Positions 7,136 through 24,429 of a DNA stretch of 32,000 bases are shown piece by piece. The first letter of the stretch is position 1. The number at the start of each line of letters is the position of its first letter. The notes beneath the pieces were generated by a model that was not told the DNA's origin, made no database searches, and was given only the letters and a program-made list of their open reading frames with translations. This DNA is from Roseofilum halophilum BLCC-M91 (GTDB lineage Bacteria > Cyanobacteriota > Cyanobacteriia > Cyanobacteriales > Desertifilaceae). A program made the translations under genes and the position numbers. Location: the NCBI RefSeq assembly GCF_030068445.1, contig NZ_JAQPOK010000012.1, positions 1 through 32,000 on the forward strand, given 5' to 3'.

Positions 7136-8308
7136 ATGATCAATAATCAACCCATTTCTATTTCTTTGTTTACCGGAGCCTATGGACTAGATTTAGGTCT
7201 AGAGCAGGCTGGTTTTATTACAGTCAGTGTAGTCGAGAAAGATCTGAATGCGGTCAAGACTATTGCTCTGAATAGACCTGTTCTTAAAAACAGTGCTATT
7301 CCTAGAGAAATAGAACAAGTGACGGCACAAGAATTACTGGAAGAAGGAGGGAAAGCTTTAGGTTTAGGTCGTCCTTTACAACCGGGTGAAGTAGATTTAA
7401 TCACTGGTGGCCCGCCTTGTCAACCCTTCAGTACCGCCGGAAAAAGAGGTTCTGTTCTAGATCCTCGTGGTAGTTTATTCATGGATTTTATTCGGATTGT
7501 TAAAGAAGTACAACCTCGTTTTTTTTTAATGGAAAATGTTAAGGGTTTACTTTCTGCTCCTCTACGCCACCGACCGATTAATCAACGTGGAAAAGGTTAT
7601 CCTCCTTTAAGAAAGGATGAAATAAAAGGTGCGGCTTTGGAGGTGGTAATATCAGAAATGAAGAACATAGACTATCAGGTAATTTACAATGTCTTAGAAG
7701 CAGCAGATTATGGTGTCCCGCAAACCAGACAGCGTGTCATATTTATGGGTTCCAGAGATTCTGAATCTGTCACCTTTCCTCTGCCAAAATATTCCAAATA
7801 TGGTAAAAACTTACCTAAATGGCGGACTTTAAAAGACGGTTTAAAAGGGTTGGTAGATTCAGAACCAGAGTTTATACCCTATTCAGAAAATCGCCTCAAG
7901 TATTTAAAATTATTGAAAGCTGGGCAAAATTGGAAAAATCTACCAGAAGACTTAAAACAAGAAGCTATGGGAGGTGCTTATCATTCAGGAGGAGGAAAAG
8001 TCGGTTTTTATAGAAGATTATCTTGGGATAAGCCTTCTCCAACCATCACAACCAGTCCCAATCAAAAAGCTACCGATATGTGTCATCCTGTCGAACTGCG
8101 TTGTTTAACAGTTCGTGAATCGGCGAAACTGCAAACTTTTCCTGATGATTGGATTTTCTCTGGTTCCACTCTTTCTAAATATAAACAGATTGGCAATGCA
8201 GTACCAGTTTTACTCTCGAAAGAAATTGGTGTTTATCTTTTTAATTTAATTCAAGGACACCAAGAAAAAGGCCAACAAATTACTGAACAACTTTCTCTAT
8301 TTTCTTGA
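7136..8308 (+). CDS. DNA (cytosine-5)-methyltransferase
   Basis: The canonical m5C motifs are present: FTGAYGLDLG (I), GGPPCQPFS (IV), ENV (VI), QTRQRV (VIII) and GNAVP (X). Confidence 0.95.
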   Translation: MINNQPISISLFTGAYGLDLGLEQAGFITVSVVEKDLNAVKTIALNRPVLKNSAIPREIEQVTAQELLEEGGKALGLGRPLQPGEVDLITGGPPCQPFSTAGKRGSVLDPRGSLFMDFIRIVKEVQPRFFLMENVKGLLSAPLRHRPINQRGKGYPPLRKDEIKGAALEVVISEMKNIDYQVIYNVLEAADYGVPQTRQRVIFMGSRDSESVTFPLPKYSKYGKNLPKWRTLKDGLKGLVDSEPEFIPYSENRLKYLKLLKAGQNWKNLPEDLKQEAMGGAYHSGGGKVGFYRRLSWDKPSPTITTSPNQKATDMCHPVELRCLTVRESAKLQTFPDDWIFSGSTLSKYKQIGNAVPVLLSKEIGVYLFNLIQGHQEKGQQITEQLSLFS

Positions 8309-8314
8309 TCTCGT

Positions 8315-9109
8315 CTATTGAGCCGCAAGTTTGGCAAAAGCCCGATCGATTTTGAGTAACATCTGTCTTACTCGCTCCTCTAGGAGATCATAATTAATAT
8401 AAATGATCTCCCAAAACTCTTTACCTGCAAGACGAGGAATTCGGGCATCATTAAATGTCCATTCTCCTAAATCAAAGGCTGATATGAAAACTGGATTTTC
8501 ATGAATCGCTAATTCTTTTTTAGCTCTACTGCGTTGGGAACCCGTCAATGTTCCTTTTAAGGTCTTAATTTGTGCAAACACAATTTTATCTTGTGATAAG
8601 ATAAGCAGATCGATTCCCTTAATTTTAATTCCAAATTGAATTTCAGGAATAATTATATAAGGACTAATATCAGCTATATCTTCCCAAAGCCTACCCATTT
8701 TTGTACTTAGACTTCTGGTGACTGAGTTACTGGTCATTAGTAATTTTGCCCCACATAGCTCAAAAAGATTTTTAGGTTTAGGATGGGATTCCAAGAGAAG
8801 ACTTTGGTTTTGAAAATCTACTGTTAACCACTCAATAAAATTATCGGTAAATTGGTTGGTTTTGCTAGAAATTAACTGATATTGTTTATCCAATTCTAAA
8901 ATGGTTCCATTTTGCAAATCTTGTGCAAGTTGATATTCAAAGTAACCCGGTGCTATTGAGGAAATGATTTTTCCATATTGGTAGGGCTTATGTAAATCTT
9001 CATCAGTAATATGGGTCACCTTAATCAATGAAGCATGATGCAAAATGAGTGATTTCCTTTCTTCAACAGAAAGCGATATTAACGTCTCAGCAGATAATGG
9101 ACTAAGCAT
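8315..9109 (-). CDS. Putative type II restriction endonuclease partner of the m5C methyltransferase
   Basis: The gene is convergent with the methyltransferase, with stop codons 6 nt apart. It shares the same AT-rich, HIP1-free composition. A possible PD-(D/E)XK-like core is GIDLLILSQDKIVFAQIKTLKG. The family and specificity are not recognised. Confidence 0.55.
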   Translation of the reverse strand: MLSPLSAETLISLSVEERKSLILHHASLIKVTHITDEDLHKPYQYGKIISSIAPGYFEYQLAQDLQNGTILELDKQYQLISSKTNQFTDNFIEWLTVDFQNQSLLLESHPKPKNLFELCGAKLLMTSNSVTRSLSTKMGRLWEDIADISPYIIIPEIQFGIKIKGIDLLILSQDKIVFAQIKTLKGTLTGSQRSRAKKELAIHENPVFISAFDLGEWTFNDARIPRLAGKEFWEIIYINYDLLEERVRQMLLKIDRAFAKLAAQ

Positions 9110-12175: not shown

Positions 12176-13249
12176 TTAAATATACCGAGAAATATCCTCC
12201 TGACAATCATCCGCCAGATAAGACAAAGCGCGGAAACGCAACCCCACCAACTGCTCATAAAGCGGATTTAACTTACACATCGGGGGAATATGGACAATTT
12301 TATGGCCAAACAGCTTAATATCCCGTTCAAACGGACATTGGGGCGGAATCATTTTACAGAGAAACCTAGCCATATAAGGCGTATTAATATCCAAACCATC
12401 TAACCACTGCCGCACCGGATGCAAAACATCACCTTCCGGAAAAGTCGCTTGCAACTTTTCAATCATCGCTTGCCGTTTTTGCTCCGGTAGAGTGTCTGAA
12501 GTAATCAATAAAAACTTCAGCACATCTAACACCTCACTCGAAGGCTCTAGAGCTTCACAATAATCTTGTAAAACCCGATCTTCCTCCTCAGAATAGGTTC
12601 CATTAGCCAACGCCATAATCACCCCAGTCCGCAGAAAATTCTCCGCCACTGAAGTTTCTCGCCCTAAAACTGCTGCCAATTCTTCGCCCGTAATCGGTTT
12701 CAGGGAGCCTAAATTGAGATTAGAGCCTAACTCATCTTTAATTAATTCAGAAATTAGCTCTTTTTCCTCTGGATTATATTCACCATCTGCCCAAGCAATA
12801 GTGAGTAAACCTCTTAGCCAGGCAGTGACATGATGGTTAAGAATACGCACTCGCTGACACAAAAGCCGAATTATATTTAACCCCAACTCTGGATATTTTT
12901 CAATAGTTTTATAGAGATTTGTTTGAGATAAAACCAAACATTTACACTCTTCTAGGGCAGTGACAGAAGCCGAATGGCACTGGGAATCTAAAACCGACAT
13001 TTCGCCAAAATAGTCGCCCGGTTTGAAATGAGCTAACCTCAGTCCGCCGATATGGACTTCAACTTCTCCAGACACGAGAATATAGAGATAAGAACCAATT
13101 TCATCTTGACGAAAAATGGTGTGACCGGCGGGAAATTCAATTTCTCCCAATTGATCTGCTATTTCAGCTAAAAAAACATCATTTTTAGCTTCAATATTAC
13201 CAAAGAGGGGAATATCTTTCAGAAGTTCAAGGGACTGTGTAGAGATCAT
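12176..13249 (-). CDS. cNMP-binding domain protein fused to a TerB-like module and a Mo-nitrogenase-C-like Cys/His domain
   Basis: The cNMP-binding core is FGEMSVLD...SASVTA. TerB-like pairs are WADGEYNPEEKELISELI and ANGTYSEEEDRVLQDY. The C-terminus CKMIPPQCPFERDIKLFGHKIVHIPPMCKLNPLYEQLVGLRFRALSYLADD matches my recollection of the Mo-dependent nitrogenase C-terminal family. Confidence 0.75.
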   Translation of the reverse strand: MISTQSLELLKDIPLFGNIEAKNDVFLAEIADQLGEIEFPAGHTIFRQDEIGSYLYILVSGEVEVHIGGLRLAHFKPGDYFGEMSVLDSQCHSASVTALEECKCLVLSQTNLYKTIEKYPELGLNIIRLLCQRVRILNHHVTAWLRGLLTIAWADGEYNPEEKELISELIKDELGSNLNLGSLKPITGEELAAVLGRETSVAENFLRTGVIMALANGTYSEEEDRVLQDYCEALEPSSEVLDVLKFLLITSDTLPEQKRQAMIEKLQATFPEGDVLHPVRQWLDGLDINTPYMARFLCKMIPPQCPFERDIKLFGHKIVHIPPMCKLNPLYEQLVGLRFRALSYLADDCQEDISRYI

Positions 13250-13752
13250 GATAAAACTTGCCGTTGTACCTGGTTATAAAAGATGTCTTCAGATGCTCCA
13301 AAGAGGCGATTGAGTTTACGCACCCGTTGGCAAAGAACGTTAATCATTTTTATGGCTACTTTGGGCCGTTCTTTGATCGCTTGATAAACTTGTTCTTGGG
13401 TTAAAACCAGACATTGACAGGGTTCTAGGGCTGTCACGGAAGCCGATCGCGGCCGAGATTCAAAGATCGCCATTTCACCAAAATAAGATCCGGCAGTCAG
13501 TTCTGCCAGTTGCACGTCATCAAAATGGACTTTAACCCGACCGGAAAAAAGAATGTATAATAAGTCGCCGCGATCGCCTTGAGTAAAAATGGTATGGTCT
13601 GGGGGAAACTGCACCTCTTCTAAATGAGTGGCTAACTGTTCTATGAACTCCGTTTGAGCGAGATCTTGGAAAATGACCAGCTCGGTTAAAAATTTGAGTC
13701 GGTCAGTTACACTCAACATGGGTTTTTCTCGATCGCCTGTATCAGTCACCAT
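13246..13752 (-). CDS. Stand-alone cyclic-nucleotide-binding domain protein
   Basis: The cNMP motif is GDLLYILFSGRVKV...FGEMAIFESRPRSASVTA. Its stop overlaps the downstream gene's start in an ATGA overlap at 13246-13249. Confidence 0.85.
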   Translation of the reverse strand: MVTDTGDREKPMLSVTDRLKFLTELVIFQDLAQTEFIEQLATHLEEVQFPPDHTIFTQGDRGDLLYILFSGRVKVHFDDVQLAELTAGSYFGEMAIFESRPRSASVTALEPCQCLVLTQEQVYQAIKERPKVAIKMINVLCQRVRKLNRLFGASEDIFYNQVQRQVLS

Positions 13753-13817
13753 AGGCTTTGAAGGAATTGAAACTGCCTGCTTCTAAGCTACCATGTCATT
13801 TGGCTTCTGAGCAGTAG

Positions 13818-13850
13818 GGAAAACATCCCAAGTCATGGGTTAAGCTTCTG
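13818..13850 (+). repeat. Left copy of a ~33-bp imperfect direct repeat
   Basis: gggaaaacatcccaagtcatgggttaagcttctg matches gggaaatgtccccaagtcatggcttaagcttcta at 17123-17156. The core cccaagtcatggNttaagcttct differs at one position. Confidence 0.6.
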
Positions 13851-13882
13851 GATTGGTAAATAGATTGGATAAGCATAGCAAC

Positions 13883-14040
13883 GAGGACTATCCCGCAAGG
13901 ATATAGTAGAGCTATTTCGGCTCATCGACTGGCTGATGGAACTTCCAGAACCAGAAGAGCGGCGGTTATGGGCAGAAATGGAAACCTTAGAGGATGAAGT
14001 GGCTACATCAGCAGAAGAGCCAGATAGCCCAGAAGAGTGA
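13883..14040 (+). pseudogene. Decayed C-terminal remnant of a paralogue of the Rpn-family gene at 17318-18277
   Basis: Bases 13883-13992 align at >90% identity by eye with ~17893-18001. Bases 13993-14065 align with 18230-~18305. The fragment therefore lacks the N-terminal ~190 codons and carries an in-frame 228-bp internal deletion. It reads ...GLSRKDIVELFRLIDWLMELPEPEERRLWAEMETLEDEVATSAEEPDSPEE*. Confidence 0.8.
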
Positions 14041-14069
14041 TGTTTCTCTCCTTAACGATCTGATCCGAT

Positions 14070-14810
14070 TTAGAATGCCTTTAAAAACTGGTCAATCACA
14101 GCGACGGGTTGACTCGCACACTGTGACTGGTCATAAATGCGGATCAGATCGATACCCGGAAGCTGCTCCAAATCACTTAATTCTGGAAGATCTAACTCTT
14201 TTGACTGCACAATGAGTAAGCCTGATTTATCTTGATGCTGCACCAGGAGATCGAAAACATAACTTTGGCGGCTATTTGCGATCGTCAGACGGAATTGGGG
14301 ACTGACCAGAAAATTGATATTGCGAGCCTCAAGAATTTCTGCAAGTGTGGCGACAATGGAGCAATGACAGGTTAAATTTTGCCAGCGAAGAATGGCATCT
14401 TGGGAATAGGTCAAAGAATGGGTATCCGAGGAAGAATCTGTAACCGCAGGTTCAATTAAATTAGCAACTAAACGAGAACCCGCTAAATTCGCTCCACTGA
14501 GATCCGCACCACTCAAGTTAACCTCAATCACCAAATTGCGCTGAATATTCACTTTGTGACGGTGGAGATAACGACGCAGAACCGCTTTCAGATTATCTTT
14601 TTTAACCCGCTCCCCTAACTCCTGAGAGATCCGCTTCCACAGTTTAGCGCCCACATCCTTGATATAATCGGGATCGTAGCCCGCATCCTGGGCAATTTTA
14701 CTGTAAGATTTGCCTTCCCAAGATTGCCGAAAGACAAGTTCTTGGACTTGAGTTAAAGCTTCATAGTCCAAAATGGTTTCCACCCAAGTCAAGGCTTCAT
14801 CAACGGTCAT
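14070..14810 (-). CDS. HTH-like N-terminal domain plus pentapeptide-repeat protein with an unknown C-terminal domain
   Basis: The N-terminus LTQVQELVFRQSWEGKSYSKIAQDAGYDPDYIKDVGAKLWKRISQELGERVKKDNLKAVLRR is a module I recall at the N-termini of cyanobacterial STAND/pentapeptide proteins. Pentapeptide repeats follow (NLSGADLSGANLAGSRL). The ATG overlaps the upstream gene's stop in an ATGA overlap at 14807-14810. Confidence 0.7.
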   Translation of the reverse strand: MTVDEALTWVETILDYEALTQVQELVFRQSWEGKSYSKIAQDAGYDPDYIKDVGAKLWKRISQELGERVKKDNLKAVLRRYLHRHKVNIQRNLVIEVNLSGADLSGANLAGSRLVANLIEPAVTDSSSDTHSLTYSQDAILRWQNLTCHCSIVATLAEILEARNINFLVSPQFRLTIANSRQSYVFDLLVQHQDKSGLLIVQSKELDLPELSDLEQLPGIDLIRIYDQSQCASQPVAVIDQFLKAF

Positions 14811-15643
14811 TGGGGGATACTAGCAAGCCATTCTGTTAAGTCCTGCTGTTGTTGGAAGTTAGGCATCGCTTCCATTAACCCTTGGAGTTGGGTGAACGAC
14901 AGATTATAAATTTTCTCTTCCGTCTCTGCTGCGATCTTCCCAAGTTTGTGGCGTAACATCATCAAGACCGCTTCCTGGCGGCCTTCCTGAAGACCTTCTT
15001 GGCGACCTTTTTGCAGGATAAACTGATAAAAAGAAGAGTCTTCCAGCAAGTCTTCGCGGAAGAGGTCTTGAATAATTTCCGGGTTGTGAATCAGTCCAGA
15101 CATAATAGCAGTACAGGCGATGATTTCTTTGCGTTGATTAGGGTCAGGAATTTTGCGCGTGGCCTCTGCTACCTGTTGTAGCAGATCTCGCGGCGCATTG
15201 CTACGGGTTAGAGGGGCTAAAGGGAGAAGAGCAGCATCATTGAGGAAGGGAGCAGGATCTTGTTCCCACAAACGGAGGACGCGATATGTGTGAAGGGTAT
15301 TTTGGACTTGGAAGCGATCGACATACACTTCAGGTGAGTTGGTCTGTTTCAGAAAAATGACCACTTGCTCAATGGTACAGTGATATTTCCGATAAAGCCT
15401 TAACCAATAGTCGATCATCCGCTCTGGTAAGGGGGGGTTAGGTTTGGGAACGCGCTCAAATTCCAGATGCAGGATAGTATCGGCTGCTTTGAGTAAGATT
15501 AAGGAGTCAGCACGAACCGGTTCAGTAGAGAGTTCAGTTTTAATCACTTGCACATTGCTGGCATTGACTTGGGGAAGCAGCAAACGGACAAAACTGATTG
15601 GGTTTTGGGTTGCCAGGAATTTACAGGTGTTGTCAAAAGCCAC
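14807..15643 (-). CDS. Rpn-family recombination-promoting nuclease / PD-(D/E)XK putative transposase with a DUF4351-like tail
   Basis: FDNTCKFLA...VRADSLILLKAADTILHLEFE is the PD-(D/E)XK core typical of the cyanobacterial Rpn/YhgA-like family. The C-terminal helical tail (QEGRQEAVLMMLRHKLGKI...) is DUF4351-like. Confidence 0.75.
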   Translation of the reverse strand: MAFDNTCKFLATQNPISFVRLLLPQVNASNVQVIKTELSTEPVRADSLILLKAADTILHLEFERVPKPNPPLPERMIDYWLRLYRKYHCTIEQVVIFLKQTNSPEVYVDRFQVQNTLHTYRVLRLWEQDPAPFLNDAALLPLAPLTRSNAPRDLLQQVAEATRKIPDPNQRKEIIACTAIMSGLIHNPEIIQDLFREDLLEDSSFYQFILQKGRQEGLQEGRQEAVLMMLRHKLGKIAAETEEKIYNLSFTQLQGLMEAMPNFQQQQDLTEWLASIPQ

Positions 15644-15704
15644 AATCTACAAGAGACCCAAACGTGAAGTTTCTTCACTATTCTACCTCATATTGGGGTA
15701 GCAC

Positions 15705-15746
15705 CTGACATTTGCCTTACTTTTTGATTACTTTTTGCTACTGACA
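15705..15746. promoter_or_regulatory. Operator-like repeat architecture in a divergent promoter region
   Basis: The arrangement is CTGACA (15705-15710), N6, TTACTTTTTG (15717-15726), a, TTACTTTTTG (15728-15737), cta, CTGACA (15741-15746). A TATAAT lies at 15784-15789 and an AGGAGG at 15839-15844, 9 nt before the TTG start at 15854. Confidence 0.3.
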
Positions 15747-15853
15747 GAGTGAGCATAAACAATTATCCTTTTAGAGGGGAGTATATAATCATACAGAAAA
15801 TCCTTCTAATTTCAACATTCTAATGTCCTTCTTGACTCAGGAGGCTTGCTACC

Positions 15854-16489
15854 TTGGATATCTTGATCAAATTGATTACGCCAGGCCCTTTTGCTTTGCC
15901 TTCAGGCTTTGGTCTTCGCGTTGTCAGTAGCTGGTTTGTTTCTCACTTTATTTTGACATTTGTAATTGCTTTTTTTGCTATAGTTTCAGGTGATCTAAAA
16001 GATCCAGATTTCGGTTATCTAGCTTACAATGGAAGCCTATTTGGAGTCGCGCTGTGTTTTTATGGGTTACTGGGAATAGCTATAGATTATATGCGAGGGA
16101 ACCGACCTTATTATCCGGGATGGTATTGGTATTTATACCCTTGGATTTCAGCATTTTATGTGGTGATATTATTGGTGATCTTTCTACTATCCCTTTTGGG
16201 GGTGAGTTTACCAGAACAACAAACTAGGAAGCTCACTAGAGATCGGTTACATCAAGCTCTTGAACAATCCTCTCTCCAAGATTTATTAGAGAATTATGGT
16301 AATGCATTTGAAGAACTAAAAAAAAGAGAGCAAGCAGGAAAGCTCGATCCGGCTCAAGCAGAGGTTGTCAGAAAGTTGAGGACTTTTGATCGCTCGAAGT
16401 ATGATAGAAAGATCACCTCGCTGTTGAGTCAGGAAGAATTTAAAAGACTATTTATCCTGATGTTGATTGTAATGTTGATAGAGGAATAA
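15854..16489 (+). CDS. Multi-pass membrane protein with a cytoplasmic helical C-terminal half
   Basis: The TTG start is preceded by a perfect AGGAGG. There are three clear hydrophobic helices (FVSHFILTFVIAFFAIVSG; SLFGVALCFYGLLGIAIDY; ISAFYVVILLVIFLLSLLGV), a charged helical region and a short hydrophobic tail. No family is recognised. Confidence 0.6.
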   Translation: MDILIKLITPGPFALPSGFGLRVVSSWFVSHFILTFVIAFFAIVSGDLKDPDFGYLAYNGSLFGVALCFYGLLGIAIDYMRGNRPYYPGWYWYLYPWISAFYVVILLVIFLLSLLGVSLPEQQTRKLTRDRLHQALEQSSLQDLLENYGNAFEELKKREQAGKLDPAQAEVVRKLRTFDRSKYDRKITSLLSQEEFKRLFILMLIVMLIEE

Positions 16490-16491
16490 CC

Positions 16492-17121
16492 ATGGGATTT
16501 CAACTGTTTAAAATGAATGTACCGCGCAATAGCCCTATTTTAAAACATCTCAGTATTCAGCCGGGCAAGTATATATTGAAATGGGACAACGTTAATGGTG
16601 ATTTAATATTTTTGTCTCAAAGGGGTACAGAAAAGCTTGCCTTAAAACTGTCCCCTGAAGAATTTAAAATGATGCAATTAATGATGGACAATCTCACAGA
16701 TAAGTACACATTTGATGAAGAGAAGCTAAAAGAATTTGTTAAACGTTCAGGAGGATTTTCATCAAAGGTAAAAGATTATGTAGGGCATCATATAATCCCT
16801 CTAGACTTATTCAAGACTAGCAAGTTACTCTTGGCAGTAAGTCCAAATAATAAAAAGGGGAACCCAATCCATATTAATTTTTATGAGAACCACCCTGCTA
16901 ATCGTCTTCCATTACCAGCTACTTTTCATAAGGGGTCACATGGTTCGTACAGTAACTTCGTTGAAGACTGCCTAGAAGGTGAATGGTCTGATATTGTTAA
17001 GTTTGGGTTGGAAAACGATAGGTCTCACATTGTAGAGATCATATATCAAATCATTATTTTTCTGAAAGATAAGATCCGGGAAATGCGAAAAGATGGGTTA
17101 GTTTCAATTAATGATATTTAG
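16492..17121 (+). CDS. Stand-alone HNH/EndoVII-superfamily nuclease, AHH-like
   Basis: The ATG lies 2 nt after the upstream stop, with GAGGA upstream. The motif string VGHHIIP...NHPANRLPLP..FHKGSHGSYSNFV matches the AHH-family pattern (xHH-I-I/V-P ... N..LP ... H.GSH..Y). The N-terminal ~90 aa are unrecognised. Confidence 0.55.
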   Translation: MGFQLFKMNVPRNSPILKHLSIQPGKYILKWDNVNGDLIFLSQRGTEKLALKLSPEEFKMMQLMMDNLTDKYTFDEEKLKEFVKRSGGFSSKVKDYVGHHIIPLDLFKTSKLLLAVSPNNKKGNPIHINFYENHPANRLPLPATFHKGSHGSYSNFVEDCLEGEWSDIVKFGLENDRSHIVEIIYQIIIFLKDKIREMRKDGLVSINDI

Positions 17122-17122
17122 G

Positions 17123-17156
17123 GGGAAATGTCCCCAAGTCATGGCTTAAGCTTCTA
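17123..17156 (+). repeat. Right copy of the ~33-bp imperfect direct repeat
   Basis: See 13818-13850. This copy directly abuts the DUF2237 gene-tail fragment. Confidence 0.6.
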
Positions 17157-17157
17157 C

Positions 17158-17238
17158 ATCAACAGTATATTCTTTCAGCAATTCTAAGGAAATCACCGCT
17201 AAGGTGTTGAGATGGGTAGCGGATAGGACGACAGGTGG
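17158..17238 (-). pseudogene. 27-codon fragment of a DUF2237 paralogue (3' end only)
   Basis: The minus-strand translation PPVVLSATHLNTLAVISLELLKEYTVD aligns with PPVVLSATHFNTLATIPLELLKEYAVD at the C-terminus of the intact gene at 18314-18691. Nucleotide identity is ~80% by eye. Confidence 0.7.
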
Positions 17239-17250
17239 TAGATAAAAACC

Positions 17251-17298
17251 AGCGATCGCACTCAAACCGCTATCCTGATAAATACCAAGTTTTCCTAA
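17251..17298 (+). pseudogene. 15-codon fragment of a LuxR/NarL response-regulator gene tail
   Basis: [15 protein letters not shown] aligns with [15 protein letters not shown] at the end of the intact regulator (stop at 20275-20277). Similarity continues ~20 nt past the stop. Confidence 0.65.
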
Positions 17299-17317
17299 AG
17301 CCACTCAGGGACAAGCA

Positions 17318-18277
17318 ATGACCGATTATGACTCCCCCTGGAAAGAAGCCATCTCTCTCTACTTTCCCGAATTCATGCGCTTCTTCTTCCCCAACATTGC
17401 CACAGACATCAACTGGAGTCGAGGATTTCAATTCCTCGACACCGAACTCCAGAAAATCAAGCGGGAAACCGAAACTGGGCGACGAGAGGCCGATAAACTC
17501 GTCCAAGTTTGGCAACATAATGGACAAGAAACCTGGGTTTTACTCCACATCGAAGTTCAATCTCAGCCCCAATCCGAATTTGCCGAACGCATGTATATTT
17601 ACAACTCTAGGCTCTTCGACACCTATCGTCGGCAAGTCGTCAGTTTAGCTGTCTTAGCCGACGAACGCCCCTCCTGGCGACCCCATCGCTACAAACGAAA
17701 ACTGTGGGGATGCAAATCGAGCTTAAACTTTCCCATCGTTAAGCTTCTGGACTACAATACGAGTGAATTAGACAGCAACCGAAACCCCTTTGCCGCCATA
17801 GTTCAGGCCCATAGAGCAGCTCAAGCGATGGGAAAGAACCCAGAAAAGGGCTATCAGAACAAACTCAGGTTAGTCAAAAGTCTCTATGAACGGGGATTAT
17901 CCCGCAAGGATATAGTAGAGCTATTTAGGCTCATCGACTGGCTGATGGAACTTCCAGAACCAGAAGAGCGGCGATTATGGACAGAACTGGAAACCTTAGA
18001 GAAGGAGAAAGTCATGCCTTATATTACCAGTGTTGAACGCTTTGGCATTGAGAAAGGACGTGCTGAGGAACGACAAGAATCTATCCTTCGGATCTTGGAA
18101 GTTCGTTTTGTGGAGGTTCCAGACGAGTTAAAAGAGCAAGTGAGGAAAATCGCCAGCTTGGAAGTGCTGGCAGAATTGTTGACTCAAGCTGTAACAGTCG
18201 AGTCTTTGCCGTCTTTCCAAACAGTAATTGATGAAGTGGCTACGTCAGTACAAGAGCCAGATCGCCGAGAAGAGTGA
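17318..18277 (+). CDS. Rpn-family recombination-promoting nuclease / PD-(D/E)XK putative transposase (intact)
   Basis: DSPWKEAISLYFPEFMRFFFP...ETGRREADKLVQVWQHNGQETWVLLHIEVQSQ is the classic N-terminal nuclease core of cyanobacterial Rpn/YhgA-like proteins. The C-terminal tail is helical and DUF4351-like. Confidence 0.85.
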   Translation: MTDYDSPWKEAISLYFPEFMRFFFPNIATDINWSRGFQFLDTELQKIKRETETGRREADKLVQVWQHNGQETWVLLHIEVQSQPQSEFAERMYIYNSRLFDTYRRQVVSLAVLADERPSWRPHRYKRKLWGCKSSLNFPIVKLLDYNTSELDSNRNPFAAIVQAHRAAQAMGKNPEKGYQNKLRLVKSLYERGLSRKDIVELFRLIDWLMELPEPEERRLWTELETLEKEKVMPYITSVERFGIEKGRAEERQESILRILEVRFVEVPDELKEQVRKIASLEVLAELLTQAVTVESLPSFQTVIDEVATSVQEPDRREE

Positions 18278-18313
18278 TGTTTCTGTCTTCAACAATCTGA
18301 CGATCGATGGTTT

Positions 18314-18691
18314 TCAATCAACCGCATACTCTTTCAGCAATTCTAAGGGGATCGTGGCTAAGGTGTTGAAATGAGTAGCCGATAGAACCACGGGAGGCGC
18401 AACCCCAGCTTCGAGGGCTTCTTTCCAACGGGAGGCACATAAACACCAGCGATCGCCACTTTTAAGCCCCGGAAACCCATAGATCGGTACAGGGGTACTG
18501 AGGTCATTGCCCTGCTTGCGGGTATAATCCAGAAATTCATCCGTCACTTGGGCACAAACCACATGCAGACCGAAATCTCCCGGCCCGGTTTCGCAATATC
18601 CGGTGCGGTAATATCCCGTCATGGGGTCAGTGCAACAGGGTTGTAAGGGTTCACCGAATACGTTTTTGGCTTCAGATTGGGTTTCAGACAT
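18314..18691 (-). CDS. DUF2237 family protein
   Basis: NVFGEPLQPCCTDPMTGYYRTGYCETGPGDFGLHVVCAQVTDEFL is the conserved Cys-rich DUF2237 pattern. Confidence 0.85.
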   Translation of the reverse strand: MSETQSEAKNVFGEPLQPCCTDPMTGYYRTGYCETGPGDFGLHVVCAQVTDEFLDYTRKQGNDLSTPVPIYGFPGLKSGDRWCLCASRWKEALEAGVAPPVVLSATHFNTLATIPLELLKEYAVD

Positions 18692-22896: not shown

Positions 22897-24429
22897 ATGA
22901 GTTACTGTGTCAACCCCGACTGCAAATCCCCCCAAAATCCCGATAGCGCTAAATTTTGCTCCAGTTGTGGGACTTCCCTCTATCTCCGACAACGCTATCG
23001 GCCCGTGACCCAACTCGGTCAAGGAGGATTTGGTAAAACCTTTATTGCCATTGATGAAGATATTCCCTCCCAACCTCTACGGGTCGTTAAACAACTCTAC
23101 CTCAAAGGCTTTAGCGATCAAGTCGTTCATAAAGCCCAACGGTTATTTCGCCAAGAAGCCGTTCGCCTCGATGAGCTAGGAAAACACGATCAAATTCCCG
23201 ATTTACTCGCCCATTTTGAGCAAGATAAACAGCTCTATTTAGTCCAGGAGTTTGTGGACGGCCCCACCTTAGCTCAGGAACTCCAGCAAAAAGGAGCCTA
23301 TGAACCCGAAGAAATTGAACAACTCCTGCGAGATCTTTTACCCGTTTTGCAGTTTGTCCATGACAATAATGTGATTCATCGGGACATTAAACCCCAAAAC
23401 ATCATCCGCCGCAAACGCGATAATTTACCCGTATTAATTGATTTTGGTGTCTCTAAATGGGTCTCCCAAACCACCTTAAATCAAACAGGAACCATCGTGG
23501 GCAGTGCCGAATATATGCCCTTAGAACAATTGCGAGGCAAGGTATTTCCGGCCAGTGATTTATATAGTTTAGGAGCCACTTGTTTGCATTTGCTCACCGG
23601 ATTGCCTCCCTTAGAACTCTATGATATTGCCAATGAAAAATGGGTATGGCGAGATTATTTACTACCAGAAAAACGGGTGAATTTATATTTGGCCGAAACC
23701 CTCGATCGCATGGTCTCTCGGAACTTAAATCAGCGTTTTCAATCGGTCTCCGATGTATTGTCTGTACTCTCGGTTACCCCTGGTTCCTTAATGGCCGTTG
23801 CTCCACCCAAACCCAAAACCCCTAAACCCGTCACCCCTCGTCCCGCTTCTAGTCGAACTGCGCTGAGTAACCAACCGACAGAACTCTCCACAAAAATCTC
23901 CACGAAACTCCCCAGCAAAACCTTTAACCCCCTTCATGTGGTGAAAACTTGGGTCTTTGGCTCCTCGGAAATATCCGCAGAATTAACTTCTGTCGTTGGT
24001 GTGGATTATACAAAGTTGCAAGGTTTCTTGCAACTCAAACGCTGGAAAGCAGCCGATGAAGAAACCTGGAACTGTCTGCATCAAGCCGCAGGTAAACCCC
24101 TGAGTCGCTTTTTAGCCCCCCGCGATATTACGAAGATTCCCTGTGAAGATTTGCAGACAGTCGATCGACTGTGGCTAGAAGCGAGCGAGGGACGCTTTGG
24201 ATTTACGCTTCAGGTTCAGGTGTATCAACAGTCGGCAGAGGAGTATTTTCAGTTCTGTCAAGCCGTAACATGGCCCTTACGACCGGGTGGTAATGCGGAG
24301 GACTATATTCAGTATAAAAATAATGCTCCAGTCGCTCACCTGCCCTCCCCCATTCGCTTCAAAGGATCGGATTGGTCAAAGCATGTGGAGGCGATCGCCT
24401 CTAAGTGTATTAGTTGCGGCTTAGTTTAG
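22897..24429 (+). CDS. Ser/Thr protein kinase with an N-terminal zinc ribbon and a C-terminal GUN4-like domain
   Basis: The zinc ribbon is CVNPDCKSPQNPDSAKFCSSCG. Kinase motifs are GQGGFGKTF, HRDIKPQN, DFG and AEYMPLEQ. A Pro-rich linker follows. The C-terminus KRWKAADEETW...IPCEDLQTVDRLW...SEGRFGF is GUN4-like. Confidence 0.85.
   Translation: MSYCVNPDCKSPQNPDSAKFCSSCGTSLYLRQRYRPVTQLGQGGFGKTFIAIDEDIPSQPLRVVKQLYLKGFSDQVVHKAQRLFRQEAVRLDELGKHDQIPDLLAHFEQDKQLYLVQEFVDGPTLAQELQQKGAYEPEEIEQLLRDLLPVLQFVHDNNVIHRDIKPQNIIRRKRDNLPVLIDFGVSKWVSQTTLNQTGTIVGSAEYMPLEQLRGKVFPASDLYSLGATCLHLLTGLPPLELYDIANEKWVWRDYLLPEKRVNLYLAETLDRMVSRNLNQRFQSVSDVLSVLSVTPGSLMAVAPPKPKTPKPVTPRPASSRTALSNQPTELSTKISTKLPSKTFNPLHVVKTWVFGSSEISAELTSVVGVDYTKLQGFLQLKRWKAADEETWNCLHQAAGKPLSRFLAPRDITKIPCEDLQTVDRLWLEASEGRFGFTLQVQVYQQSAEEYFQFCQAVTWPLRPGGNAEDYIQYKNNAPVAHLPSPIRFKGSDWSKHVEAIASKCISCGLV

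Follow-up and report, generated by a model that had tools for sequence, protein, structure and literature searches.

How does a cell hold in check an AHH-type nuclease that has no immunity gene behind it? This question is raised by two adjoining genes of the filamentous cyanobacterium Roseofilum halophilum BLCC-M91, which lie in a stretch of 32,000 nucleotides (positions 1 to 32,000 of contig NZ_JAQPOK010000012.1, assembly GCF_030068445.1; hereafter the window). The first gene (gene 1) encodes a predicted membrane protein and the second (gene 2) a small putative nuclease. We tentatively read the pair as the effector core of a rare conflict module of the abortive-infection or programmed-cell-death type, in which a membrane-tethered nuclease would be regulated by a STAND nucleoside triphosphatase (NTPase). 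As far as hosts are named, the module is found so far only in filamentous cyanobacteria. Coordinates within the window are collected in Table 1.

The catalytic domain of gene 2 appears to be a bona fide Tox-AHH member. The protein contains the motifs GHHIIP, N..LPLP and HKGSHGSY, in which the initial annotation had recognized the pattern of AHH-type nucleases, and a profile search agrees, with residues 86–162 matching Pfam AHH (PF14412) at 27.0 bits against a cut-off of 22.3 (E = 4.8e-6). Relatives score 33–68 bits with the AHH profile, and an exact-match database entry is annotated as 'AHH domain-containing protein'. Among 20–22 family members (20–82% identity) the invariant columns are H99, H100, P103, L112, N137, H146, H150, Y153 and W165. 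The Tox-AHH signature is [AG]HH followed by N, H, H and Y (PMC3482391, Zhang et al. 2012), and gene 2 of the window fits it with G98-H99-H100, N137, H146, H150 and Y153, all but the first position being invariant. In the AHH dyad, the first histidine is assigned the role of binding metal and the second that of activating water (PMC3113570, Zhang et al. 2011).

The AlphaFold2 model of gene 2 (predicted local distance difference test score, pLDDT, 83.5) comprises a β-rich N-terminal domain of ~85 residues (strands 4–10, 25–32, 37–41 and 47–52; helices 55–67 and 74–80), a ββα core (strands 96–100 and 138–142; helices from 143) and a C-terminal helical hairpin. Gene 2 had been described as a small stand-alone nuclease with an unrecognized N-terminal domain, and the ~85-residue domain indeed matches no family. 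Foldseek returns only weak PTB/PH-like matches for the N-domain (E > 0.3) and nothing significant in PDB or BFVD, and the gene 2 profile has no match among PDB sequences. Two large proteins (P0026 and P0027) that match residues 23–53 do so through Ig-like N_BRCA1_IG repeats, a short-motif artefact and not a copy of the N-domain. No gene 2 homologue has a hydrophobic segment of transmembrane or signal-like character, which suggests that the protein is made in the cytoplasm.

To place the pair in context we compared 13 loci, 12 of them distinct, from Roseofilum, Spirulina, Planktothricoides, Laspinema, Planktothrix, Anabaena and metagenomes (at least six genera). They include another Roseofilum from a Logan assembly (L002), Planktothricoides (L004), Laspinema (L007), Planktothrix tepida PCC 9214 (L009) and Anabaena sp. 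CCY 0017 (L014). A gene 1 homologue lies directly upstream of the nuclease gene and on the same strand in every case (13/13), with gene 1 homologues 21–62% identical between lineages (BLASTP or alignment), and in 10 of the 12 distinct loci the two genes overlap or are separated by 0–14 nt. The co-occurrence of the two genes thus extends across genera, and they appear to be a conserved functional pair. The pair is also rare. A gene 2 family profile searched against 1.84 billion representative proteins yields 23 matches at E ≤ 1e-3, of which ~16 are full-length at ~200 amino acids (family members span 199–241). Members with a named host belong to Spirulina, Planktothricoides, Laspinema, Planktothrix and Anabaena, all of them filamentous cyanobacteria, and the others are metagenomic. 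A scan of genome contigs for further loci finds only Spirulina, two metagenome scans and one viral scan give no match, and plasmid or phage collections contain no tblastn match.

The absence of an immunity gene downstream of gene 2, remarked on in the initial annotation, is a property of the family and not of the window alone. No downstream open reading frame is common to the 12 loci, except for a few short (13–33 amino acids) multi-frame matches between the closely related L004 and L007, and no known AHH immunity family (SUKH, SuFu, Imm-ank, PA2201, Imm11, 20, 23, 24 or 43) is encoded downstream or upstream of the pair. The possibility that relatives always carry an immunity gene behind the nuclease, the window copy being merely a decayed polymorphic-toxin tip, is excluded: relatives are never embedded in a large protein, and what lies downstream of them is not a conserved gene. 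The genes next to the pair vary by genus. Frequent neighbours are toxin–antitoxin, restriction–modification, SNF2-PLD, CHAT, integrase and resolvase genes, and there are no secretion-system genes in the pair neighbourhoods.

If no immunity protein follows the nuclease, attention turns to gene 1. The reading frames place the two genes 2 nt apart and, as first described, a perfect AGGAGG stands ahead of the TTG start of gene 1, a start supported by homologue N termini that line up from residue 1 (MNLIIKYVTPG..., MLEQLLTFITPGP...). The description of gene 1 as a 211-residue protein with three transmembrane helices and a ~90-residue helical region is likewise borne out by the reading frame, hydropathy and AlphaFold2. 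Hydropathy identifies three transmembrane segments in this protein and in the majority of its homologues, and the model (pLDDT 69.6) has helices at residues 21–44, 53–80 and 90–114, then a helical domain at 129–210 with pLDDT 81–87. The C-terminal helix is hydrophobic. Conserved elements are a YPGWYWYLYP loop between the second and third transmembrane helices, an N-terminal ITPGP motif and a KLRxFDRSKY motif in the ~90-residue helical domain. In L011, gene 1 has a single transmembrane helix and lacks the conserved loop while keeping the helical domain and the nuclease partner. This makes the membrane part look like an anchor and points to the helical domain as the conserved functional part.

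Gene 1 belongs to no described family that we could find. It reaches the cut-off of no family in Pfam or NCBIfam, an exact-match database entry calls it a 'hypothetical protein', and every match of its profile to solved chains has E ≥ 0.06. The top match, Tetraspanin, scores 16 bits against a cut-off of 32 and is hydrophobic noise. A UniRef cluster label of 'DUF805' could not be reproduced, and both DUF805 and the known AHH immunity families are rejected for gene 1, as Pfam and NCBIfam give none of them. By eye, the gene 1 tail (residues 192–211, SQEEFKRLFILMLIVMLIEE, SQEEFKRLF...) resembles gene 2 residues 54–68 (SPEEFKMMQLMMDNL, SPEEFKMMQ...), in Spirulina too. Homology of this tail with gene 2 helix 55–67 is not supported, hhalign finding only an unrelated stretch (E = 0.024, probability 2%). 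Three transmembrane helices followed by a charged C-terminal domain resemble the topology of class I holins, which is a point in favour of export of the nuclease as a toxin (weighed below). Gene 1 does not look like a typical holin, a small membrane protein of ~70–150 residues encoded beside a lysis enzyme and forming lethal membrane lesions: it has 211 residues, no endolysin nearby and no Pfam holin match.

A third gene, which the initial annotation had not noticed, accompanies the pair in six or seven of about 11 lineages. Divergently upstream of the pair, six loci (L004, L007, L009, L011/L012, L013 and L015) encode a ~460-residue protein that combines a helix–turn–helix (HTH) domain of the HTH_VMAP-M9 type with an NB-ARC STAND NTPase domain. 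The NB-ARC domain scores 38–55 bits in L004 and L007, the Walker A and B motifs (GxxGxGK[ST] and hhhhDD) are intact in the STAND proteins, and their profile matches the MalT-like STAND protein PH0952 and the plant NLR Roq1. The HTH lies at the N terminus and resembles sigma-70 region 4 (weak matches, 16–17 bits). In L010, the divergent gene encodes an HTH alone (164 residues). The three genes can be transferred together. L004 and L007 belong to different genera and their flanks are unrelated; their DNA is 79.6% identical over a stretch that coincides exactly with the STAND gene, the intergenic region, gene 1, gene 2 and ~270 bp downstream. The STAND gene and the pair thus appear to move as a single 3.2-kb block (L004 5314–8554).

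Some further features of these neighbourhoods deserve mention. On the right, the three-gene block common to the Planktothricoides and Laspinema loci is bounded by a repeat element of ~100 nt (L004 8446–8650, 9511–9616, 10499–10610 and 11214–11380; L007 8446–8564). The element recurs five times in 3 kb of L004 and may be similar to a miniature inverted-repeat transposable element. In the Anabaena locus, a co-directional run (L014 943–9293) consists of a gene for a 1099-residue PLD-SNF2 helicase, the pair, and finally kinase, vWA and PP2C genes. An integrase gene is close by, and the context is defence-island-like but lacks an HTH-STAND gene.

In the window, the counterpart of the HTH-NB-ARC STAND gene appears to be the gene for a 246-residue HTH and pentapeptide protein. 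Its N terminus is 29–36% identical to those of the HTH-STAND proteins over ~85 residues, and a precomputed match to PF26355 (HTH_VMAP-M9) exists for the near-identical copy in L002. Its pentapeptide match scores 20 bits, just under the cut-off of 20.2. The protein has no NTPase domain, and a linked STAND protein with intact Walker motifs is consequently a feature of the relatives and not of the window. Between this HTH gene, which it overlaps by 4 nt, and the shared intergenic region lies a gene for a 278-residue Rpn-family protein.

The divergent arrangement leaves a shared intergenic region in which an HTH protein might act. Exact 8–10-mer direct repeats with a spacing of 10, 11, 14, 20 or 22 bp are present in all seven tested intergenic regions that adjoin an HTH gene (each P ≤ 0.05 against first-order Markov shuffles) and sit 40–75 bp from the HTH gene start; in the four loci that lack an HTH gene, no intergenic repeat is significant (0/4). 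We read these iteron-like repeats as candidate operators for the HTH protein. The repeat unit is TTACTTTTTG in the window, CGTACATTTT (three copies) in L004, CCCACTTTTT in L009, TCCGCCTTTT in L010 and TTTGTTAC (two copies) in L013. Its core varies between loci, as expected if it co-varies with the protein predicted to bind it. Promoter-like matches in the intergenic region of the window are at chance level, and no terminator above chance follows gene 2.

Comparisons between close relatives suggest that the nuclease is the hypervariable part of the module. Two Planktothricoides loci that occupy the same chromosomal site (L013 and L015) are 98% identical in the STAND protein and 99% in the body of gene 1, but only 29% in gene 2. 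DNA homology between them ends 29 codons before the gene 1 stop, just past a KLRxxDR motif, and resumes downstream; the tail of gene 1 and the nuclease have therefore been exchanged as one cassette. Immediately behind the nuclease gene, the replaced cassette of L015 also includes a DDE_3 transposase gene and an HTH gene, and insertion sequence activity may have aided the swap. A milder form of the same pattern separates the window from L002. Here DNA identity is 99.8% over the HTH and Rpn genes and 100% over the debris that follows gene 2, 91% in the intergenic region, 97.2% in gene 1 and 88.7% in gene 2 (84.8% in the AHH core). The synonymous divergence (dS) is 0.23 for gene 2 and 0.08 for gene 1, and the ratio of non-synonymous to synonymous divergence (dN/dS) is 0.44 and 0.18, respectively. 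This pattern points to replacement by a diverged allele. Hypermutation of gene 2 by a diversity-generating retroelement was considered and rejected, as the substitution spectrum has no adenine bias and dS is raised too. Toxin-module replacement between close strains, a trait of polymorphic toxins, is thus seen in both L013/L015 and window/L002.

Exchange can go beyond the AHH family. In L008, a metagenomic locus of plasmid-like context, the gene 1 homologue is followed by a gene for a 179-residue protein whose N-domain aligns with that of the gene 2 family (hhalign E = 1.8e-4 over 66 columns, probability 48.7%). The C-terminal half is GIY-YIG-like, scoring 22.2 bits against a cut-off of 22.6 and carrying the motifs GLYYIH...VYIGKS...R...E. 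Because a GIY-YIG-like domain stands here behind the same N-domain, the N-domain seems to behave as a constant adaptor with exchangeable nuclease warheads. Across the 12 distinct loci, the similarity of the gene 1 tail tracks that of gene 2 when the gene 1 body is controlled for (partial Mantel test, r = 0.44, P ~0.001).

These observations can be assembled into the mechanism that we tentatively favour. Gene 2 would be an active, cytoplasmic, non-specific DNase of the AHH His-Me type, its ~85-residue N-domain serving as an adaptor and not as a secretion signal. Gene 1, translated just before gene 2 from the same mRNA, would be its membrane-anchored partner, with the helical domain and C-terminal helix holding or controlling the nuclease at the membrane, and would thereby do the work of the immunity or antitoxin protein that is missing. 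In the full system, the divergent HTH-NB-ARC STAND NTPase would bind the iteron-like repeats in the shared promoter region and let a signal, probably that of infection, trigger the expression or release of the pair, which could then kill the cell and might thereby contribute to phage defence. The window would hold a reduced version, in which the NTPase is absent and is replaced by the 246-residue HTH and pentapeptide protein, co-transcribed with the Rpn-family gene. Such a conflict module would explain the lack of an immunity gene, the order and translational coupling of the pair, the co-transfer of the three genes and the iterons, and likewise warhead swapping, neighbourhoods rich in conflict genes and the filamentous cyanobacterial hosts. 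Conflict systems in which a STAND NTPase works with swappable effectors are well established and are enriched in multicellular prokaryotes (PMC7159879, PMC8195603).

Several observations weigh against this model. Four loci (L001, L014, L016 and L008) have no HTH/STAND gene near the pair, which makes the pair the core and the regulator an accessory that appears to be dispensable or replaceable. The ~460-residue STAND proteins lack a C-terminal repeat sensor, and hhalign detects no shared adaptor domain of the EAD type (STAND against gene 2, E = 0.32; STAND against gene 1, E = 0.53). The helical domain of gene 1 is inferred to be on the cytoplasmic side, but positive-inside counts are ambiguous, and a nuclease in the cytoplasm could not be held by a C-terminal domain outside the cell. 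A swap that leaves the nuclease only 29% identical alters gene 1 in just its last 28 residues, which is little for a specific inhibitor and may only reflect the site of recombination. The gene 1 body tracks gene 2 with a partial r of 0.37, compared with which the value for the tail is not clearly stronger, and both may reflect linkage only. The intergenic repeats are rich in T-tracts and could be structural promoter elements instead of operators. Finally, the remainder of the window consists mostly of housekeeping genes, so the window is not itself a defence island.

The same parts also permit a bolder proposal, which we consider possible but doubtful. In this proposal, the three genes would constitute an undescribed immune or cell-death system of multicellular cyanobacteria, in which an HTH-STAND, signal-dependent transcription switch fires a membrane-tethering adaptor together with an interchangeable warhead (AHH or GIY-YIG). 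The C-terminal helix of the adaptor and the N-domain of the warhead would form a cognate docking pair, with swaps arising by recombination at the KLRxxDRSKY boundary, and AHH nucleases, regarded until now as exported toxins directed at other bacteria, would also serve as internal suicide effectors.

Of the competing explanations, a two-gene addiction module of the toxin–antitoxin or toxin–immunity kind survives best, although we regard it as unlikely. Gene 1 would be a membrane antitoxin and gene 2 the toxin, and together they would stabilize a mobile segment with no dedicated sensing, the HTH protein being an autoregulator. The antitoxin-first order and translational coupling are as such a module would have them, as are the loci in which the pair stands alone (L001, L014 and L016), the toxin–antitoxin genes that are often nearby, the plasmid-like context of L008 and the position of the window copy in a HIP1-free, low-GC, repeat-bracketed insert. 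A co-transferred 460-residue NB-ARC STAND protein, however, exceeds what an autorepressor needs, an antitoxin with three conserved transmembrane helices and an aromatic loop is atypical of type II systems, and the plasmid and phage collections contain no match. The boundary between toxin–antitoxin and abortive-infection systems is blurred, and this explanation overlaps with the STAND-regulated conflict module.

It is less likely still that the two genes form a membrane-signal sensor pair, in which the outer loop of gene 1 would detect an envelope perturbation such as phage DNA injection or depolarization and activate the nuclease, by a logic analogous to that of Kiwa, Zorya or RexAB, a comparison that the initial annotation had drawn for Kiwa and Zorya. 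The strong conservation of the YPGWYWYLYP loop and the ITPGP motif is what a sensor would require, and the loci that have the pair without a STAND gene (L001, L014 and L016) could be explained in this way. The L011 protein, however, with its single transmembrane helix, has dispensed with that very loop and retains the helical domain and nuclease; the PADLOC search relates neither gene 1 nor gene 2 to Kiwa, Zorya or other systems; and an unrestrained AHH DNase would need an inhibitor. Most improbable is an exported antibacterial toxin that kills non-kin filaments, with gene 1 as a holin-like release or export factor or docking site and the N-domain as a trafficking or receptor-binding domain: AHH domains are largely restricted to secreted polymorphic toxins (PMC3482391), and cassette swaps in near-identical strains together with AHH/GIY-YIG exchange mirror polymorphic-toxin modularity, but no immunity gene travels with the swapped nuclease at any locus, leaving the producer and its kin unprotected unless gene 1 is the immunity protein, gene 2 has neither a signal peptide nor a known trafficking domain (RHS, PAAR, LXG, MIX and the like), the neighbourhoods are devoid of secretion-system genes, gene 1 with its conserved helical domain is about twice the typical holin size, and the linked STAND NTPase would go unexplained.

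The setting of the pair in the window points to its origin. The initial annotation had called the pair AT-rich, HIP1-free and lodged between Rpn-family genes, had taken 17122–17317 for gene-fragment debris and had suspected horizontal acquisition, and each of these points stands. The GC content is 34–40% over the pair and 44–50% in the flanks. HIP1 (GCGATCGC) occurs 39 times in the window and not once in 13578–17251, the longest HIP1-free stretch, which covers the pair. The Rpn-family genes are found on both sides, the right-hand one (17318–18277) being a weaker relative of DUF4351 type. The debris contains a fragmentary copy of a DUF2237 gene that is intact at 18314–18691 (product 125 residues), and a 52-residue open reading frame at 17146–17304 resembles the C terminus of that product. 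Two 33-nt repeats bracket a ~3.3-kb HIP1-free segment made up of Rpn fragments, the HTH gene, the gene for the 278-residue Rpn-family protein and the pair. Given the low GC content, the HIP1-free stretch and the bracketing repeats, the segment looks horizontally acquired. The repeat pair may represent the termini of an insertion, or else a site of recombination, and it looks as if a copy of the convergent Rpn/DUF2237 junction has been split by the insert.

Table 1. Features of the pair and its surroundings, in window coordinates.
Feature	Position	Strand	Remarks
Gene 1 open reading frame	15854–16489	+	TTG start; 211 amino acids; read from sequence
Shine–Dalgarno sequence AGGAGG	15839–15844	+	9 nt before the gene 1 TTG; read from sequence
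Gene 2 open reading frame	16492–17121	+	ATG start; 209 amino acids; begins 2 nt past the gene 1 stop
Gene 2 N-terminal domain	16492–16746	+	Residues 1–85; four β-strands plus helices; no family match; AlphaFold2 pLDDT ~80–91
Gene 2 AHH-type His-Me (HNH/EndoVII) core, hairpin and stop	16747–17121	+	Core residues 86–162; conserved C-terminal helical hairpin 163–209
Divergent intergenic (promoter) region	15644–15853	.	Between the Rpn/HTH operon and the pair
Iteron-like direct repeat, TTACTTTTTG ×2	15717–15737	+	11-bp spacing; candidate operator for the HTH protein
Rpn-family gene (PD-(D/E)XK putative transposase, DUF4351)	14807–15643	−	278 amino acids; TIGR01784 52.6 bits against 52.1; DUF4351 47.5 bits
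HTH and pentapeptide protein	14070–14810	−	246 amino acids; HTH of VMAP-M9 type at ~residues 1–85; pentapeptide repeat 96–112; C-terminal half without family
Rpn-like gene fragments	13880–14063	+	Copies of 17889–18006 and 18219–18300; left edge of inserted segment
33-nt direct repeat	17123–17155 and 13817–13849	+ (17123–17155)	85% identical; starts with a small GGGA...TCCC hairpin; the copy at 17123–17155 is directly after gene 2
DUF2237 3′-end fragment (debris)	17158–17259	−	81–83% identical to 18317–18456
Rpn-family flank, weaker DUF4351-type relative	17318–18277		Right-hand flank of the pair

The window has no Rfam or tRNA matches. A C5 cytosine DNA methylase gene at 7136–8308 (+; 228 bits) is convergent with an unassigned 264-residue open reading frame at 8315–9109 (−), and the two may be a restriction–modification pair. 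Positions 12176–13752 (−) encode two adjoining cyclic nucleotide (cNMP)-binding proteins, the longer of which additionally contains a Mo-nitrogenase C-terminal domain and matches TerB weakly. A Ser/Thr protein kinase fused to a GUN4 domain is encoded at 22897–24429, an architecture listed among cyanobacterial conflict-system effectors by Kaur et al.

The pair and its regulator probably represent an undescribed self-killing or defence system. Assignment to a known defence system was rejected: neither gene 1 nor gene 2 has a match in PADLOC-DB v2, which includes Kiwa, Zorya and Avs, and the neighbouring genes have only weak ones (13–26 bits), namely P-loop at 14–26 bits for three of the four STAND proteins and Cyclase at 13.5 bits for the 246-residue HTH protein, with none for the Rpn-family genes. 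Full-text literature searches that combined AHH with defence, membrane, STAND and cyanobacterial themes returned no description of such a system, and a 2026 survey of STAND proteins makes no mention of an HTH-type clade of this kind.

Should the proposed mechanism be correct, the AHH clade, described as essentially confined to secreted polymorphic toxins, would also supply an intracellular effector, and a lethal DNase would be controlled by a membrane-anchored partner and not by a classical soluble immunity protein. It would also provide a compact three-gene STAND system that acts through transcription, by way of an HTH and iterons, and not through a fused effector, which bears on NLR-like diversification. 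The locus offers a natural effector-swapping experiment, with gene 2 reduced to 29% identity inside flanks of 98–99% and AHH exchanged for GIY-YIG, and the system is small enough for direct testing in Synechocystis, Anabaena or E. coli. Given how rare the family is, its general importance would be limited unless the mechanism proves to be new.

Comparison with known systems helps to define what the module resembles. With the Tox-AHH domains of polymorphic toxins (PMC3113570, PMC3482391, PF14412) it shares the catalytic family, the full signature and a hypervariable, exchangeable nuclease. It is not a polymorphic toxin system, because a large secreted carrier protein, a trafficking domain and a downstream immunity gene are all missing, and in their place stands an upstream partner with three transmembrane helices, usually with a STAND NTPase. 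The likeness to Kiwa (KwaAB), Zorya (ZorAB with ZorC/D), RexAB and Shield lies in the combination of a membrane component with a component that targets nucleic acid, and is one of analogy only, since PADLOC finds no sequence similarity of gene 1 or gene 2 to any of them. Type II toxin–antitoxin operons are similar in being small, coupled two-gene operons of mobile or variable regions with the presumptive neutralizer first. In the present case, however, the presumptive antitoxin is embedded in the membrane and has no DNA-binding domain, the toxin would be a His-Me DNase with an additional N-domain, and there is often a separate HTH-STAND gene.

The regulator invites two further comparisons. Like the STAND transcription regulators MalT, AfsR and GutR, it is an HTH-STAND fusion encoded beside a possible target operon with operator-like promoter repeats. 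It differs from them in that the HTH is N-terminal and sigma-70 region 4-like, and in that the neighbouring genes encode a nuclease and a membrane protein and are not metabolic. Compared with the STAND/NB-ARC conflict systems (PMC7159879, PMC8195603), Avs and bNACHT, the present system has its effector in a separate gene, no shared EAD adaptor, a STAND protein without a repeat sensor, no vWA-MoxR genes and an obligatory membrane protein between regulator and nuclease. The parallels are an NB-ARC STAND protein linked to a swappable nuclease, neighbourhoods in variable regions, multicellular hosts (here filamentous cyanobacteria, where hosts are named) and an HTH of the VMAP-M9 type, which is named after those systems. 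On the strength of these sequence-level comparisons, we rate the system as a putative STAND-associated nuclease effector module with a toxin–antitoxin-like core.

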